Source of the DNA: a virus
Length of the DNA: 44,209 nucleotides
Strand: one strand, 5' to 3'
Virus genome (UHGV): UHGV-0168748
The notes under the pieces are model-generated. The model was not told where the DNA came from. It did no database searches and saw only the letters and a list, made by a program, of their open reading frames with translations. A program made the position numbers and the translations under genes. Of the stretch, positions 26,382 through 37,893 are shown piece after piece (position 1 is the stretch's first letter; each line of letters starts with the position of its first letter).

Positions 26382-26891
26382 TTAGAAGAACGGTTGGTTT
26401 GGAATAACCGCGTATTCCAGAATGAACATGTGTTCAGGGGCGTCAGTTTTACGCCAGACTTTGTGTGTTGCTACGAGTTTTTCCAGAATCGTTAAGAAGC
26501 TACGTTGGCAGTAGGTGTTTTCGCCAAGTAACAGATTCTGAAGTTCTACAGTAGCATCCATATACGCTTGCTTAAAGACCAACCCACGGTTATACTGACC
26601 CGTATAGTTCCAGAGCAACACTTTACCTTCTTCGGTTTCTTTTACCGTTGGCCGTAGACCACAAATCCAGAGCAGTGCTAAGTTTACGTTCCAATCAAAC
26701 TCTTGCTCATTCTCGGGATCATCGCCGAAGGCAGTAGGCAAAGCATCGTAAAATTCGTGCTTCTCAGCGAAATCTTCATCCGATTTAATCTCGTCTTCGA
26801 TACTGCTTCGGACGATAGCGTAAACGTCTTTCGCGGTTAGTTGTGCGGCTTTTGTAATGCCTTTATACCAATCGGTTACAACGATGCTCAA
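26382..26891 (-). CDS. hypothetical protein
   Basis: 169-aa track ORF. Confidence 0.55.
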   Translation of the reverse strand: MSIVVTDWYKGITKAAQLTAKDVYAIVRSSIEDEIKSDEDFAEKHEFYDALPTAFGDDPENEQEFDWNVNLALLWICGLRPTVKETEEGKVLLWNYTGQYNRGLVFKQAYMDATVELQNLLLGENTYCQRSFLTILEKLVATHKVWRKTDAPEHMFILEYAVIPNQPFF

Positions 26892-27613
26892 AGGGCAACT
26901 CCTCTATTGATTGGAAAACTCGTGTTTATCGTATCCCAAATTCTACTGACTTCCGCCAATTGAATCTGACGTGGTGACTTCTTCGCAAACGCAAGCTGAC
27001 GTGGAGCCGAGCCCACAGCAGCAGGTACATCGATTTTCGCACTGTAAAATGCTGCGTCTTTCATAAACCCTGCCATTTCTCGTTGTGCTGCTCGAGATTT
27101 GCTTTTGATTCGTGCGTGTGCACCACTTTCACCCCAGTGGTAAGCTAACGCAACTTCAGCCATGGTGGGCTTGCGTTTGAGTCGTTTAGTTAACCCCTTT
27201 TCAAGATGCTTAATATACGCGGCAGCCAGCAAAACAGCATTACGCGGATTGTACAAATCGGCGTTCTGACTAAGACCTAATTCTTTTCCGTAAAGCTTTA
27301 GCAAATTACGTTTGGTACTCGGAACCATCTGTACCAGGCTGTGTGCTCTTGAGCTTTTATTGTAAGCTTTAGGATCAAAACGCGATTCACGGTAAATCAG
27401 CGTAACCATCAATTTAGGATCAACGCCTTGCTTTCGGGAGATTTCCACAATTAAAGGACTGACCTTTTCGAATCGATGTTGGATTTGTGCAAACTCACGA
27501 TGATGCTTAGATTGTGGCGTTGACGTTGACGCCTGTGCGTTAAACGCGAAAAGTGTTACCAGTAAAAGAAAGAAGATACGAAACATTTTGCTTCTCCAGT
27601 TGGATTTATACAT
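26888..27613 (-). CDS. lytic transglycosylase (SLT domain) with signal peptide
   Basis: Signal-like MFRIFFLLLVTLFAFNAQA; SLT motifs YRESRFDP, SLVQMVP, AAAYI. Confidence 0.6.
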   Translation of the reverse strand: MYKSNWRSKMFRIFFLLLVTLFAFNAQASTSTPQSKHHREFAQIQHRFEKVSPLIVEISRKQGVDPKLMVTLIYRESRFDPKAYNKSSRAHSLVQMVPSTKRNLLKLYGKELGLSQNADLYNPRNAVLLAAAYIKHLEKGLTKRLKRKPTMAEVALAYHWGESGAHARIKSKSRAAQREMAGFMKDAAFYSAKIDVPAAVGSAPRQLAFAKKSPRQIQLAEVSRIWDTINTSFPINRGVAL

Positions 27614-32440: not shown

Positions 32441-33049
32441 TTATTTGGTATACGGTTGATATCCCATTGAAATCCAGTCATCAATGTTCTTTGAGTTTTC
32501 TACCCAAACCCGACCTGCTTCAGAAGCCATCATCTCCATTGTTAGTGTGCAAATCAGATTGGTTACTGCCGCACATTTCCCTGGCGTTACGCCATCCAGA
32601 TAAACCGGATAGAGATACGGGGATTTAATGCTTTGGTACGGATAAGAATAATGGCTACCGACCATCCAACCTTCTTCTACCGGACACAAGTTAAAGGTAC
32701 GGGTTTCAGGAACTTCGCCTTCAGAGATCCAGTTAACAACGTCTGCTTTAATACGACCGTTGTCCACGTAATAGAACACAACACGTTGCGGAATACTGAC
32801 AGTACCCGCTGGGTCGAGAGCTTCCATTGCTTTGAACGGCGTTGTCAGTAAAGTCGTACTGTTCTCGAGCGCGTAAACCAGTTTGTCATACGCCACCGGT
32901 GTTTTACGCTTAAAGTATTCCCGTAAACGCGGGTAAGCTAAGAACCCTTCAACTTCTTCTTCCATCAGATCGATGAATAACGGGGTGTGTGGATGCTGCT
33001 CTGCGTTCAACATGGCTTCAAGAAAACGAACTAGTGTGATTTCGTTCAT
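32441..33049 (-). CDS. hypothetical protein
   Basis: 202-aa track ORF; no metallophosphatase motifs, so not an Mre11/SbcD partner. Confidence 0.55.
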   Translation of the reverse strand: MNEITLVRFLEAMLNAEQHPHTPLFIDLMEEEVEGFLAYPRLREYFKRKTPVAYDKLVYALENSTTLLTTPFKAMEALDPAGTVSIPQRVVFYYVDNGRIKADVVNWISEGEVPETRTFNLCPVEEGWMVGSHYSYPYQSIKSPYLYPVYLDGVTPGKCAAVTNLICTLTMEMMASEAGRVWVENSKNIDDWISMGYQPYTK

Positions 33050-33061
33050 CTGGCATTTCCT

Positions 33062-33097
33062 TTTAAATCAAAAAAGAAACCCCGAACGTGGTCGGGG
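33062..33097 (-). terminator. rho-independent terminator
   Basis: CCCCGA-ACGTGG-TCGGGG, U-run on minus strand. Confidence 0.6.
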
Positions 33098-33106
33098 CCG
33101 GGCTAA

Positions 33107-33583
33107 TTAGAGCCCTAAGTGCGTGAGTGATAAAATAGGCTGGGATTCACCTTTAATCGTTGCGTAGGAGCGGTACATTTCCGCGTTACTTGAAAAGACT
33201 TCGTTAGCAACGATACATTCACCCGTCTCTAAAGAAAGGAGATAAATGTAGTCGCTCCATACACTTTGTACCAATACCCATTCGAGTGCAGTATCGCTTT
33301 CTCGCGTTGTCCGTAAGTAATGGAAATAAGGACGAATTGCGTCAACGGCTGCATTAAATCGGCGGTGATAAATTCGGGTTAAATCGAACGTCCAAATTGT
33401 TTCCAGGTCGACAGGATGTAATGTACGTACTGTGTCGATGATTGTTGACTGGTCGCCTATACGAGCAGCTTCTGCAATACGTAATAGTTTCCAAGCCACT
33501 GTCAGGTTGTGGCGAATCTGTTCAGGTTTGGCGGACAGGTCATGATGAAATTGTGCTGCTTGGTAGACGTTAGACAGTTGCAT
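33107..33583 (-). CDS. hypothetical protein
   Basis: 158-aa track ORF. Confidence 0.55.
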   Translation of the reverse strand: MQLSNVYQAAQFHHDLSAKPEQIRHNLTVAWKLLRIAEAARIGDQSTIIDTVRTLHPVDLETIWTFDLTRIYHRRFNAAVDAIRPYFHYLRTTRESDTALEWVLVQSVWSDYIYLLSLETGECIVANEVFSSNAEMYRSYATIKGESQPILSLTHLGL

Positions 33584-33660
33584 GATAATTCTCCTTTAGG
33601 TATAACAAGTCGTAAAAAGGACCCCGGACGAATCGGAACGTACCGGGGCCAAGACTACAC

Positions 33661-34050
33661 TCAGTAATCTAATTCGATAGCGCCTGCCATCTCACCGCGT
33701 TCTTCGATAACGATTAAGTAACGGTCGCGAGATTTGCTTTTAGCAAGCGATAAGACAACAGTAGGGTCGCACGTTTTCGTAGTGATAGGAAGAACCTCTT
33801 TTGCGACAGAATCAAGTAGGAAATAGTAACCGGCTGGGCACATCGCGCCCCCGTCGGCTTTCACCAGAATGTAGCGCCCATCTGCGCCGACTTCTTGACA
33901 GGTTGTTTCTCCATTCTCACAGACTTCAAAACTGGGTGGATTGTACTGATAATCGTCGTTGTTGTTTGCTGTCAGCAGTAAATCGTTAACCTGGGTAGAA
34001 GCAGTTACGCTCAGAGAGAAGAAGAATGCTAAAGCGCAAATGAAACGCAT
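33661..34050 (-). CDS. small secreted protein (signal peptide)
   Basis: MRFICALAFFFSLSVTAST; several cysteines in mature part. Confidence 0.55.
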   Translation of the reverse strand: MRFICALAFFFSLSVTASTQVNDLLLTANNNDDYQYNPPSFEVCENGETTCQEVGADGRYILVKADGGAMCPAGYYFLLDSVAKEVLPITTKTCDPTVVLSLAKSKSRDRYLIVIEERGEMAGAIELDY

Positions 34051-34060
34051 GAGTTACTCC

Positions 34061-34471
34061 TTAAATTTTAAGTTTATCCATAGCCACAACGATAGATTTT
34101 TCAGAGGTGTCTAATATCCCTACCCACGGCACACCATCTACGACTTGGAAGAACGGTTTGTTATTTCCAGAGCACAGACGCTTGTCGTTGTATTCGAGAC
34201 GTTGGGCTTTCCACGTTTCGAGGTTAAGTACCGACATAGGGCTGTCGTAGCACCAGGCACCGCCTTGCTCAACAACGAATACGTATCTGTTACCTTTGTA
34301 TTTAAACAGATTCTTCGTCTGGCAGTACAAACCATCGATTTCTGTACAGTAGAAATCATCGGTACTGTTGACGTATTTGATACCATCCGGTAATTTTATT
34401 GTTTTTGCTGTCACGTTAGCAGTGAAGAGAACAGCGATCGCAACGAGAAGCGTGTTGATGATATTTTTCAT
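34061..34471 (-). CDS. small secreted protein (signal peptide)
   Basis: MKNIINTLLVAIAVLFTANVTA. Confidence 0.55.
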   Translation of the reverse strand: MKNIINTLLVAIAVLFTANVTAKTIKLPDGIKYVNSTDDFYCTEIDGLYCQTKNLFKYKGNRYVFVVEQGGAWCYDSPMSVLNLETWKAQRLEYNDKRLCSGNNKPFFQVVDGVPWVGILDTSEKSIVVAMDKLKI

Positions 34472-34482
34472 GATAAACGTCC

Positions 34483-34968
34483 TTAGTATTTAGATTGTTC
34501 CGCGTATTTCTTAACCAGATAAGCGAATTCAGCAACACCGATATCACCGAACCAAATCAGGTAACCGGGGTCGATGTTGTAGTAATAACCGACGAGTTCG
34601 TTGGTTTGTGGGTTGTATAACGTTACGATATATTCCCAGCCACAAGCGTTAGCTTTACAGCCACCACTTTCAATCCAGATTTTGTTATTAATGTTTACCG
34701 GGTACATCGCACCGCCGGGGCCATCCATGTAACCTTTAGCACCGAACATACCATTCAATCCTACCGGGTCCAGTGTTTTATCAACAACCGCTTTAAATGA
34801 CTTATCGGTATCGTACACGTCGTTGATGTTTGGACACGCGTTAGGTTGTCCGTCCCATGCGTTGGTGTCGCATGTAAGCGCATCTTTCACTGATGCTGCA
34901 TCAACAGTTGGTGTAACACCGATAAACATGAAAGCCAGAAAGAACATCAGTGTGTGTAAACGTTTCAT
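34483..34968 (-). CDS. small secreted protein, possibly Ivy-like
   Basis: Signal peptide MKRLHTLMFFLAFMFIGVTPTVDA; GGCKANACGW loop resembles the CKPHDCG loop of Ivy lysozyme inhibitors. Confidence 0.5.
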   Translation of the reverse strand: MKRLHTLMFFLAFMFIGVTPTVDAASVKDALTCDTNAWDGQPNACPNINDVYDTDKSFKAVVDKTLDPVGLNGMFGAKGYMDGPGGAMYPVNINNKIWIESGGCKANACGWEYIVTLYNPQTNELVGYYYNIDPGYLIWFGDIGVAEFAYLVKKYAEQSKY

Positions 34969-34986
34969 CGTAACTACTCCTTTAGA

Positions 34987-35382
34987 TTATTCAGCAGGGC
35001 GATTTAAAGTAACACGACCGATTAATTCGGCATTATGAAAGAAATCTACAGCGGTATAATTACCAACTGATAACGGGTGAATACTAACCGACATGACTTT
35101 TGGTTGTTCGCAAGCAATATCAGTTAGACGTTGATAGACACGTGCGCCGTTATCGGCAATGATTAGTCCGGTGCATGTACTGTCACGCATCAGGCGGTAC
35201 ACCTCTAGTTTACCGAAGCTCCGCATTAGTGTTGGTGTTTCATCAGGATTAATAATTGGGGAATCTGGTGCTGGGTCGTAGTAGCGGATATCCGATTCAC
35301 CGAAAGCGTACGTACCGGTAATACCGATAGCGCAGAAAATAATGATAGTATAAAGTATAGTTTTAATATTCATTTCACGCAC
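34987..35382 (-). CDS. small secreted protein (signal peptide)
   Basis: MNIKTILYTIIIFCAIGITGTYA. Confidence 0.5.
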   Translation of the reverse strand: MREMNIKTILYTIIIFCAIGITGTYAFGESDIRYYDPAPDSPIINPDETPTLMRSFGKLEVYRLMRDSTCTGLIIADNGARVYQRLTDIACEQPKVMSVSIHPLSVGNYTAVDFFHNAELIGRVTLNRPAE

Positions 35383-35433
35383 TCCTTAAATAGAACGGGG
35401 ACCACGAAGTCCCCCCCCCTTTTTTTCCTGTAA

Positions 35434-35904
35434 TTATTGTTCGTATTCGGTGTTCCAGCAAGATTCGAGGAAGTTACCGTCCATCACTTTCTTAACGTTT
35501 TTGGCTGATGGGTTAAAGGTAGCAACCTTTTTCTGGTCGAGGTATAAGTCAAACTCAGTTGCTGTAGAGATTGCTTTTACAAAACTAACCCAAGTATTGT
35601 CGGTATTACGTGTGCCGTCAGGAACTACACCCCAGAACTCTTCACCATCGATAACGAAACTAATGTCGTTATCTTCCGAGTTGGCCACCACATTACCATC
35701 TTTAGAGATAAAGATCTTGTGTGGTAAAATGTTGTTTTCATCTGGATTACCGGTACAGCTAATGGTAATACCCCATCCACCGTTATCGATACCATACTCG
35801 GTTTCACCCATTGCAAAGCCACTACCCCACATGTTCGGAATGGCCTGTGCAGCAGTGGCGCTTACAGTTAAAACGATAGCTAAGAAGATGTTAGACAGTT
35901 TCAT
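35434..35904 (-). CDS. small secreted protein, paralogue of 35942-36397
   Basis: Signal peptide; conserved blocks TISCTGN, SFVIDGEEF, TWVSFVKAI shared with the neighbour. Confidence 0.55.
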   Translation of the reverse strand: MKLSNIFLAIVLTVSATAAQAIPNMWGSGFAMGETEYGIDNGGWGITISCTGNPDENNILPHKIFISKDGNVVANSEDNDISFVIDGEEFWGVVPDGTRNTDNTWVSFVKAISTATEFDLYLDQKKVATFNPSAKNVKKVMDGNFLESCWNTEYEQ

Positions 35905-35941
35905 GGTTATATTCCTTTTAGTTTAAAAATTAAGTTATTTA

Positions 35942-36397
35942 TCAAGGACGGCTATGTCCACAGTTCTTAAAGAAAGTTTCGGGCAGACGCTCACCATCTA
36001 CAATAAAGTTAGCGGCTTCGTTACCGTTGATAGCCACACCGAAGCTTTTTGCATTAGCGATAGCATTAGCGAAGGCAACCCAAGCTTTTTCTGCTTTGTC
36101 GCTGCCGTCAATAGTGGGAATGATATAGTTTTTGCCGTTTACGACAATACTCATTTCGTTGTCTTCGGCATTAGTTGAACCGACCGGTTCACCGTAATAC
36201 CAAACCATGCGACCGTAAAACTTACGATTAGCCGTTGCGGTATCGCAGTTGATAGACAAGCTGTTCCCATTTTCGTCTTCGATTTCGTAAACAGCATTTC
36301 CCGGACTTTGAAGTCCTTCCCAGCTTCCGATTGCGGCGTAAGCGTTATTGAGACCGAAAGTTAAAAGGGTTACTAAGAATGCGATAAAAGTTTTCAT
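35942..36397 (-). CDS. small secreted protein, paralogue of 35434-35904
   Basis: Signal peptide; conserved blocks SINCDTA, SIVVNGKNY, AWVAFANAI. Confidence 0.55.
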   Translation of the reverse strand: MKTFIAFLVTLLTFGLNNAYAAIGSWEGLQSPGNAVYEIEDENGNSLSINCDTATANRKFYGRMVWYYGEPVGSTNAEDNEMSIVVNGKNYIIPTIDGSDKAEKAWVAFANAIANAKSFGVAINGNEAANFIVDGERLPETFFKNCGHSRP

Positions 36398-36446
36398 TGA
36401 AATACTCCTTAAAGGTTAACAGGTTAAAAGAGTTAATCGTAACTCT

Positions 36447-36470
36447 CACCTAAGTAATATATATCTGAAA
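36447..36470. promoter_or_regulatory. conserved 24-bp intergenic element, copy 1
   Basis: CACCTAAGTAATATATATCTGAAA; 23/24 identical to 40771-40794; flanked by hairpin AGAGTTA-ATCG-TAACTCT. Confidence 0.45.
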
Positions 36471-36489
36471 TTATTTCTAATCGTACTGA

Positions 36490-36520
36490 ACAAAAAAGAA
36501 AGTGGGAGCAATGCTCCCAC
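36490..36520 (-). terminator. rho-independent terminator
   Basis: GTGGGAG-CAATG-CTCCCAC, U-run on minus strand. Confidence 0.6.
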
Positions 36521-36525
36521 TGCGT

Positions 36526-37107
36526 TCAAACATCGAACCGATACAAACGAGAACCTACCAGAAACTCGGTGTTCAGTTCTATCCACTCGAGTAAGTCTCC
36601 GAGCGGTAAACGCTTCGGGTTTTCTAACTCGATAGTGGCAACTGGATAGGAGTTAACCAATTCCGTAATGGACTCGATACCCTCCTGCGTTCCGTCGTCG
36701 TCTAACGTAATACTGAAGGGCATATCCGTACGTTCAGCACTCGGATTATACAGGTTGATTTTACTGGCTTGTACAAACGCCGAGTAGTCGTCCCGAATGA
36801 TCCTTACGTCAGGCAGTAACGATACCCACAAAAGTCCACCCGCTGGTGCTTTACGTCGTGCGTATTGCACAAACGGCGATGCAGGAATCTTATCCATAGC
36901 GCAGCAGATACAACGTAGCGTAGGGCCACGAGGATCGGTGTGTTCTACAGCAAAGATACCTATCGGGTCCAGACTACTTTTCTGTTTTACCAGAAAGGCC
37001 AGTACCGTGTCCGCCTTTTCGGGTAAGGAAAGCTCAATTCCTTCTAGCTCCCCATTGACGAGGTTTTCCAACCATACGTCTTTTCGCATTTCTATTAATC
37101 GGTACAC
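36526..37107 (-). CDS. hypothetical protein
   Basis: 193-aa track ORF. Confidence 0.55.
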   Translation of the reverse strand: MYRLIEMRKDVWLENLVNGELEGIELSLPEKADTVLAFLVKQKSSLDPIGIFAVEHTDPRGPTLRCICCAMDKIPASPFVQYARRKAPAGGLLWVSLLPDVRIIRDDYSAFVQASKINLYNPSAERTDMPFSITLDDDGTQEGIESITELVNSYPVATIELENPKRLPLGDLLEWIELNTEFLVGSRLYRFDV

Positions 37108-37119
37108 GGTACCACCTCA

Positions 37120-37893
37120 CTATTGATTAAGTTTTACATCTGCAATAAACAGCAACTGTTTACCATGTTGCTGCACTTCTTTCCAACCTAGCTTCATAGC
37201 AGCGTCAACAACATCTATCATGCTGTAACGAGAGATCAACGAGGCTGATTTTGTTCCTGACATTAAGTAGAGCGGCTCATTAGGGCAACGGTCACGGGCG
37301 TCAGGGAGTTCTTGAATGATTGATGATCCTTCAGGTACGTTAACAACACTAATCACGGTAAATGGCCTTTTGTGCGTTAGATAAATACGAAAACCGACAT
37401 GTTTAGACTCATGAAAGATTTTCTTCACGACCGCGTCTTTTAATGTCGTCTGAACTTCGACCCCAGGCAATATCATGGATTTACGGGAAACGAAACAACG
37501 ACTATTTTCGACTGTGGAGAAATAATTACGTATCGGTAAGCTGTTATTGTTATCGCGCAGTCTTTTGCTTAAGAGATCATAATCCATCTCTTTAACTTCT
37601 TCTAACCACAGATGTGCACGTTCAACGTAATACAGGCCAACCGTGTGGTAACTTAATACTTTGCCTGTACTTAGTTGCCAGAGCTTAACGCTGAGTGAGT
37701 CGGGTTTATATCGGCGATATTCCCCACGGGTATGATTGACACGTTGGTAAAGACCTACGTCTTCTGTTGGTGCGGATTCGACGGACCGCAATTGGAGTGT
37801 TCGATTATATTTATCGTCCAGCAACAACGAGGCCAGCGAGCCATTAATCACGTAGTGTTCTGATTCAAAAAGTGCATCTAAATGGATTTTCAT
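37120..37893 (-). CDS. member A of paralogous family with conserved C-terminal tail
   Basis: Ends ...AAMKLGWKEVQQHGKQLLFIADVKLNQ; start moved to ATG 37893 with AAGGA RBS. Confidence 0.55.
   Translation of the reverse strand: MKIHLDALFESEHYVINGSLASLLLDDKYNRTLQLRSVESAPTEDVGLYQRVNHTRGEYRRYKPDSLSVKLWQLSTGKVLSYHTVGLYYVERAHLWLEEVKEMDYDLLSKRLRDNNNSLPIRNYFSTVENSRCFVSRKSMILPGVEVQTTLKDAVVKKIFHESKHVGFRIYLTHKRPFTVISVVNVPEGSSIIQELPDARDRCPNEPLYLMSGTKSASLISRYSMIDVVDAAMKLGWKEVQQHGKQLLFIADVKLNQ

Follow-up and report, generated by a model that had tools for sequence, protein, structure and literature searches.

The virus genome UHGV-0168748, whose whole stretch of 44,209 nucleotides is referred to here as the window, carries at position 34483-34968 on the minus strand an open reading frame (ORF) of 161 aa with an ATG start. 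The original prediction, made from the letters alone, regarded its product as a possible secreted, Ivy-like periplasmic lysozyme inhibitor in a phage. The location on a phage was borne out: the source is an SPN3US-like jumbo phage, with a UvsX-like protein 81.6% identical to its SPN3US counterpart. NCBI nr already contains the exact protein as DAL75953.1, under the automatic label 'Inhibitor of vertebrate lysozyme family, Ivy'. The gene and the features that were recognised in and directly before it are the following:

34483-34968, minus strand: coding sequence of the divergent Ivy-superfamily protein (precursor, 161 aa), based on the ORF, homologues, the ratio of nonsynonymous to synonymous substitution rates (dN/dS), Ivy fold and homology, and NCBI entry DAL75953.1
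34977-34982, minus strand: Shine-Dalgarno sequence AAGGAG, 8 nt 5' of the ATG, read in the upstream sequence
34897-34968, minus strand: predicted Sec signal peptide, aa 1-24, cleaved between VDA and AS, read from the sequence
34834-34872, minus strand: N-terminal cysteine pair C33 and C45 (C-x11-C-P), an extra putative disulfide hairpin, based on alignment conservation
34642-34659, minus strand: putative inhibitory loop C104-K-A-N-A-C109 (i/i+5, putative disulfide), equivalent to CKPHDC of Ivy, based on HMMER and hhalign alignment

Because the AAGGAG sequence lies 8 nt upstream, dN/dS is 0.20 relative to an orthologue of 89% identity on a related phage contig (L005), and the Ivy-like gene has at least 16 homologues, 34483-34968 is by these signs a genuine, expressed-looking gene under purifying selection. 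The N-terminus of the window protein (MKRLHTLMFFLAFMFIGVTPTVDA, followed by AS) has, judged by eye, the n-, h- and c-regions expected for Sec export: positive charges at the start, a hydrophobic core of 15 residues and, before the alanine of the cleavage site, VDA with V and A at positions -3 and -1. Both A24 and A25 are invariant across the close family, and in the AlphaFold2 (AF2) model the predicted local distance difference test (pLDDT) is below 50 at residues 1-21, in the signal region. Export to the periplasm by Sec is predicted, in keeping with the secreted 161-aa protein first described, the ORF coordinates of which were exact.

Searched alone, the window protein gave no Pfam match at E ≤ 1 and a marginal match (E 0.8) to the Ivy crystal-structure sequences, in which its loop was aligned on CKPHDCG. 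The sole NCBIfam match was the Ivy equivalog NF007443 (E 0.005), at 16.7 bits versus a cut-off of 180 bits; this weak match, too, placed the loop on CKPHDCG. PF08816 (Ivy) was matched below threshold by 5 of the 8 close homologues. A profile of the close family, searched exhaustively against 1.8 billion representative proteins, gave 54 matches, about 30 of them full-length distant relatives. PF08816 was matched by 24 of the 29 aligned sequences, and the ten distant relatives nearest to the window family all scored above Pfam's curated Ivy gathering cut-off; several distant relatives are named 'Ivy family c-type lysozyme inhibitor' by NCBI. When the close family was aligned by hhalign to Pfam-certified Ivy members, with a target profile built without the window family, a probability of 99.84% and an E value of 2.2e-30 were obtained over 143 columns. 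A joint profile matched the Ivy chains in the PDB (1gpq/1xs0, E 6.7e-13; 1uuz/4ps6, E 2e-10), and here again the loop fell on CKPHDCG. Among plasmids, tblastn with the window protein found Klebsiella genes labelled 'Ivy family c-type lysozyme inhibitor' (E 1e-11, coverage 98%).

The AF2 model (mean pLDDT 75.5, predicted TM-score 0.71) has helices at residues 48-54 and 56-69, strands at 89-93, 96-103, 113-119, 124-130 and 136-138, and a helix at 142-159. Ivy has been described as a five-stranded antiparallel sheet with two short helices on one face and an amphipathic helix on the other (PMC2267010), and the element count of the model (two helices, five strands, C-terminal helix) equals that description. 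In a Foldseek search of the PDB the top eight matches were all Ivy (probability 0.93-1.0, target-normalised TM 0.39-0.55); the next match had a probability of 0.21. A search of the BFVD viral structures with the same model was unconvincing (best E 0.06, probability 0.16). As modelled, the window protein has the Ivy fold. Since the profile, profile-profile, predicted-structure and tblastn tests agree, homology of the window protein to Ivy (PF08816) is established. The original prediction had made its Ivy-likeness depend on profile or structural similarity, and both were found, in the hhalign probability and in the eight Ivy structures that head the Foldseek matches. For MliC/PliC, PliI and PliG there was no Pfam match at E ≤ 1, and none of them was among the top 50 Foldseek PDB matches. 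Neither the window protein nor the Ivy-like protein P0033 had a tblastn match among 50,697 phage records.

Some of the distant relatives have additional domains. P0062 (439 aa) contains a fused Peptidase_C14 caspase domain (E 2e-41), and two proteins of 314-316 aa, P0024 from Pectobacterium and P0027, have a cysteine-rich C-terminal extension, with a weak DUF7908 match in P0027.

The motif GGCKANACGW occupies residues 102-111 of the window protein, and the codons of the C104-C109 loop (TGT AAA GCT AAC GCT TGT, checked by hand) lie at 34642-34659. The loop is followed by EYIVTLY, predicted as the beta-strand 113-119, as expected from the first description of a loop and a following hydrophobic strand. 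The resemblance of this loop to CKPHDCG of Ivy, noticed at the same time, was upheld by HMMER and hhalign, both of which aligned the one on the other. None of the 16 close homologues departs from C104, K105, C109, G110 and W111, and C104 and C109 are at least 90% conserved over the 29-sequence alignment, the members of which are only 20-30% identical to the query; by this conservation the motif is beyond a chance match. The two cysteines have the i/i+5 spacing of Ivy, align on the Ivy cysteines and lie between the predicted strands 96-103 and 113-119, where they would form a putative disulfide. C33 and C45 are likewise at least 90% conserved across the 29 sequences (alignment A3).

The loop occurs as the alleles CKANAC, CKSNAC, CKAHAC and CKANTC, with the pattern CK[A/S][N/H/D][A/T]C. 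Allelic variation is concentrated in the loop and the preceding turn; the strand after the loop is nearly invariant. Phage alleles carry Asn at the loop position equivalent to the His of Ivy, and some close E. coli alleles keep His (CKAHAC). About 21 of the 25 distant relatives have His at this position, and their loop consensus is C-E-x-H-N-C-G. In Ivy the CKPHDC loop is described as essential by mutagenesis, strictly conserved in 30 family members and present as CExxDxC in 5 others (PMC4262234, in its account of Abergel 2007). The window loop keeps C, K and C of CKPHDC, with Pro, His and Asp replaced, and is also unlike the CExxDxC variant. Of the first label, Ivy-like lysozyme inhibitor, the Ivy homology and fold were found; 'lysozyme inhibitor' in the strict C-type sense is doubtful because the loop lacks the His, Pro and Asp of CKPHDC.

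The Ivy-like gene is the second in a tight four-gene run on the minus strand (35382 to 33661), with gaps of 10-18 nt and terminator-like hairpins at both ends. The run encodes small proteins only, each with a hydrophobic N-terminus and paired cysteines. The other features of this part of the window, and a candidate partner elsewhere in it, are:

34987-35382, minus strand: n34987, upstream neighbour, 131 aa, secreted or membrane-anchored, phrog_9424
34061-34471, minus strand: n34061, downstream neighbour, 136 aa, signal peptide, four Cys, phrog_8968
33661-34050, minus strand: last gene of the run, 129 aa, signal peptide, phrog_5248, distant paralogue of n34061
33621-33639, minus strand: terminator-like hairpin and T-run closing the four-gene run (consensus scan only)
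35397-35414, no strand assigned: bidirectional terminator-like hairpin between the YfjT-like genes and the four-gene run (consensus scan only)
26888-27613, minus strand: SLT-domain lytic transglycosylase or putative endolysin, candidate partner (Pfam SLT, E 1.5e-15; phrog transglycosylase)

Two YfjT-like secreted paralogues (35434-35904 and 35942-36397) precede the run; their orthologues in L005 match PF27224. Between 33661 and 36397, upstream of an SbcC/SMC-like gene, the minus strand thus carries six small ORFs (129-161 aa). All of them have paired cysteines and an N-terminus that is hydrophobic or resembles a signal peptide, and this six-ORF run is predicted to be an array of periplasmic accessory proteins. 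The neighbours were considered as hidden paralogues of the Ivy-like gene, as a similar GG-x-C was seen by eye, and were rejected as such: hhalign probability was ≤2% for all eight neighbouring ORFs. The AF2 model of n34061 (pLDDT 43.8) was unusable for a fold search.

The genes on both sides of the Ivy-like gene have syntenic homologues throughout the SPN3US/Erwinia jumbo-phage group. In SPN3US the slot of the Ivy-like gene is taken by SPN3US_0181, a protein of 163 aa that was tried as a diverged orthologue and found to be an unrelated cassette (BLASTP E 2.6, hhalign probability 0.4%). Since SPN3US has an unrelated protein here, the slot is, as read from gene order, a variable cassette position. 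An Ivy-like gene does occupy this slot in four jumbo-phage contigs of IMG/VR. In two of these contigs its product shares 66-68% identity with the window protein, and the flanking genes are 79-87% identical.

Near-identical copies of the gene (at least 90% identity) were also seen on contigs of 223-227 kb in isolate assemblies of Salmonella and Shigella. The hosts were Salmonella enterica Bareilly, Chester, Kedougou and Braenderup, Shigella sonnei and S. flexneri; a single sequence variant was found on as many as 100 contigs. The recurrent co-sequencing of a supposedly lytic jumbo phage with bacterial isolates may reflect a carrier state or pseudolysogeny.

In the region upstream of the secreted-protein genes, an intergenic element of about 75 nt (36428-36500, minus strand) was the sole megablast match of window positions 33000-37000 in SPN3US-like/Erwinia jumbo phages. 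It occurs in 1-3 places per genome at 82-89% identity, under no annotated feature. In the window a strong terminator-like hairpin (36501-36521) comes directly before it, and the first secreted-protein gene follows about 30 nt further downstream; the element probably serves phages as a conserved promoter or 5' leader. Its core TATATTAC was considered as a phiKZ-like early promoter, but was not enriched in the window (2 found, 1.6 expected), and a literature search did not bear out the consensus, so that this claim was dropped. An Rfam scan of 33000-37500 and a tRNA scan of the window found nothing.

The closest homologues outside phages are E. coli proteins with 56-66% identity, encoded in islands of the CP4-57/CP4-44 type. 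Their neighbours are dynamin-family, RdcB/YjcZ, patatin, DUF932, antirestriction, RadC and CbeA/CbtA genes. Islands with the CKANTC allele contain an intact n34061 homologue (64-65% identity) 33 nt after the Ivy-like gene. Islands with the CKAHAC allele (L001-L004) have a frameshifted remnant of n34987 directly before it; in L001:7684-7979 the remnant matches in two different frames, with 53% identity over aa 6-56 and 79% over aa 80-131. This arrangement suggests that a fragment of a jumbo-phage operon was captured by the island and is now decaying. The operon block probably moved from phage to island, as both flanking genes are ancestral in jumbo phages and one is decaying in the islands. In a neighbour-joining tree, the phage allele of L012/L013 is 87-91% identical to alleles in island context and only 64-66% to the window-type phage allele; because it is nearer to the island alleles, more than one exchange between phages and islands is implied.

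The pair formed by the Ivy-like CKANTC gene and the n34061-like gene (e.g. L018:6001-6912) is present in 2,376 of the 5,426 complete E. coli genomes (44%), in 1,454 of them at ≥99% identity. The carriers include O157:H7 and O103, and both genes are labelled 'hypothetical protein'. The CKAHAC allele was found in 138 E. coli genomes, in one of which RefSeq gives the label 'Ivy family'. Islands of the P0003 type have the Ivy-like gene without an intact n34061. In the O121 strain RM8352 (L022:2306-2983) the CKAHAC allele is interrupted by an internal stop, and its annotation is that of a pseudogene. The L022 annotation starts at an upstream ATG, which adds an extension of 65 aa; the same extension recurs in P0008-P0012, where a mis-called start is the probable cause. 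Fusion to neighbouring island genes (dynamin, YjcZ, DUF932), chimeric or by frameshift, is apparent in P0013, P0014, P0017 and P0020.

With regard to function, we tentatively favour, at somewhat below even odds, a periplasmic inhibitor of a foreign peptidoglycan-cleaving enzyme, with a retargeted loop, that would serve superinfection exclusion in the jumbo phage. The loop of Ivy inserts into the active site of lysozyme. By analogy, the Sec-exported window protein would present a putatively disulfide-stapled C104-KANA-C109 loop, protruding between two strands, that would plug the active-site cleft of a lysozyme/muramidase or a lytic transglycosylase. The replacement of His, Pro and Asp of CKPHDC, together with the allelic variation of the loop, makes a vertebrate C-type lysozyme an improbable target; an enzyme of phage or bacterial origin is more likely. 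In the jumbo phage, the protein would shield the wall of the infected cell from the peptidoglycan hydrolases of competing phages, as Spackle does for T4. T4 Spackle (gp61.3) is a periplasmic phage protein that was shown experimentally to inhibit the gp5 lysozyme of incoming virions and to exclude superinfection (PMC7677548). Ivy proteins are described as inhibiting the lytic transglycosylase MltB in vitro (PMC10139938, where Clarke 2010 is cited). In E. coli O121, CRISPR interference (CRISPRi) knockdown of an Ivy-like protein with the loop CKANTC is reported to improve plaquing of T7 significantly (preprint 10.1101/2024.04.20.590424). CKANTC is the loop of the widespread island allele, and the alleles that carry it (P0011/P0012/L014-L020) are 59-62% identical to the window protein. 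No endolysin is found near the E. coli island homologues, which points to a function independent of a cognate phage lysin. It is for the T7 result, the Spackle precedent, this independence of endolysin and the focus of variation in the loop that superinfection exclusion is favoured; the placement of the gene in a variable cassette slot also counts for it.

Several points weigh against this interpretation. The inhibition of MltA/B by E. coli Ivy is only weak, and binding was undetectable (PMC10139938). The His is lost from the loop, so that inhibition might be lost and not retargeted. The T7 phenotype is qualitative and comes from a preprint only (10.1101/2024.04.20.590424), and CRISPRi would have a polar effect on the n34061-like gene, which lies 33 nt downstream. 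The knocked-down gene, Hypo_04657 of ATCC BAA-2190, is only presumed to be the island locus described here, and the one complete O121 genome checked (RM8352) has the pseudogenised CKAHAC allele, not CKANTC. Finally, a PADLOC scan of the window cluster and the E. coli homologues gave no match to a defence family.

A wider form of superinfection exclusion would treat n34987, the Ivy-like gene and n34061 as one mobile periplasmic anti-phage module, which arose in SPN3US-like jumbo phages as an operon for superinfection exclusion, was repeatedly exchanged with CP4-type islands and is now present in about 44% of E. coli, and in which the rapidly varying disulfide loop of the Ivy-like protein neutralises the virion transglycosylases or lysozymes of other phages (e.g. 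T7 gp16). As a whole, this chain of events is rather unlikely.

The lysis-timing role that was raised in the original prediction is the best placed of the alternatives, yet improbable. The Ivy-like protein would then hold the phage's own signal-bearing SLT lytic transglycosylase (26888-27613) in check until lysis. The SLT protein is 51% identical to SPN3US_0198, a 'putative endolysin', and its N-terminus (MFRIFFLLLVTLFAFNAQA, followed by S) is signal-peptide-like, so that enzyme and putative inhibitor would share a compartment; the inhibition of MltB by Ivy proteins, as cited above, fits such a partnership. The two genes are, however, 7 kb apart in different gene runs. Moreover, an obligate pairing is made unlikely by SPN3US, where the orthologous signal-bearing endolysin occurs without an Ivy-like gene and an unrelated protein fills the slot, and by the E. 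coli islands, where the Ivy-like gene occurs without an associated endolysin. As a separate observation, the signal-peptide-like N-terminus is present in the endolysins of both the window phage and SPN3US, which suggests that the endolysin of the jumbo-phage group is Sec-exported or signal-anchored; the true start in the window may be Met10 (27586).

The Ivy fold could also have been repurposed for a non-inhibitory task, as a periplasmic binding or adaptor module that acts with n34061, for example in modifying an envelope receptor or in sensing cell-wall fragments. The key His of the loop is lost, n34061 adjoins the Ivy-like gene in phage and island alike, as the pair in 44% of the complete E. 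coli genomes illustrates, and the distant relatives P0062 and P0027 join the Ivy-like domain to the caspase and DUF7908 domains mentioned above. Nevertheless, conservation within the protein is highest in the loop and the strands that flank it, as expected of a functional site, and P0003-type islands retain the Ivy-like gene without an intact n34061. We consider such repurposing quite unlikely. A canonical Ivy, which would inhibit animal C-type lysozyme and protect the infected or carrier-state host in gut, egg or mucosa, is equally doubtful: family membership, the automated and NCBI names given to the window protein and its relatives, and the ~225-kb contigs in Salmonella and Shigella isolates, which hint at a prolonged association with animal-dwelling hosts, speak for it, but the loop CKANAC lacks P, H and D of the CKPHDC described as essential (PMC4262234, citing Abergel 2007), the NF007443 score is far from the equivalog cut-off (16.7 versus 180 bits), and enterobacterial hosts already encode Ivy and MliC.

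If the window protein does inhibit a peptidoglycan enzyme, it would be a second case, structurally unrelated to the first, T4 Spackle, of a phage guarding the wall of the infected cell. The two-gene cassette that is labelled 'hypothetical' in 2,376 of the 5,426 complete E. coli genomes would thereby receive a function, and the wider anti-phage module, if real, would represent a widespread and uncatalogued phage defence at the level of the cell wall. An inhibitory protein of this kind could, in practice, explain strain-dependent resistance to therapeutic phages, e.g. those that are T7-like. As the shared operon fragments show, genes have moved between lytic-type jumbo phages and the genomic islands of bacteria, and CKANAC, CKSNAC, CKAHAC and CKANTC form a natural allele series for how the Ivy loop sets target specificity. 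A literature search found no paper on lysozyme inhibitors in jumbo phages.

Among known systems, the window protein is closest to Ivy itself (E. coli YkfE; P. aeruginosa Ivyp1/PA3902; PF08816; 1gpq, 1xs0, 1uuz, 4ps6), with which it shares homology and the predicted fold. Like Ivy it has a predicted signal peptide and would be periplasmic, and its C-K-x-x-x-C-G lies between two strands, the second of which is hydrophobic and conserved. It differs in the replaced loop residues, in its distance from the equivalog cut-off and in an identity of only 12-18% to the crystallised Ivy proteins (Foldseek alignments). It also has about 40 extra N-terminal residues and the C33/C45 pair, which have no counterpart in crystallised Ivy; the match to Ivy 1gpq begins at profile position 53 and Ivy residue 14. 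Furthermore, the window-type gene is located in a lytic-type jumbo phage and in E. coli islands, away from the ivy locus. On sequence grounds, therefore, the window protein is a member of the Ivy superfamily, yet not a canonical Ivy orthologue that inhibits C-type lysozyme.

The likeness to T4 Spackle is a functional analogy only, without homology, and for the window protein target and phenotype are inferred. No Spackle was among the top 50 Foldseek PDB matches of the window model, and there was no sequence match to Spackle in the PDB. PHROG 13619, a family of unknown function, is matched by Pfam-certified Ivy members at E values down to 3e-12 and is evidently an Ivy-like phage family, so that unannotated Ivy-like proteins are already present in phage or prophage catalogues. 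The window protein matches it weakly (E 0.0056, in the loop region) and is not a clear member. The E. coli O121 protein Hypo_04657 was described as Ivy-like on the basis of AlphaFold and has the loop CKANTC (preprint 10.1101/2024.04.20.590424); the island alleles with CKANTCGW are about 60% identical to the window protein. It differs in being bacterial and island-encoded and in having Thr where the loop of the window protein has Ala, and its equivalence to the island locus is presumed. The window protein is thus a divergent, phage-borne addition to the known Ivy family, an E. coli homologue of which has already been called Ivy-like in that preprint.

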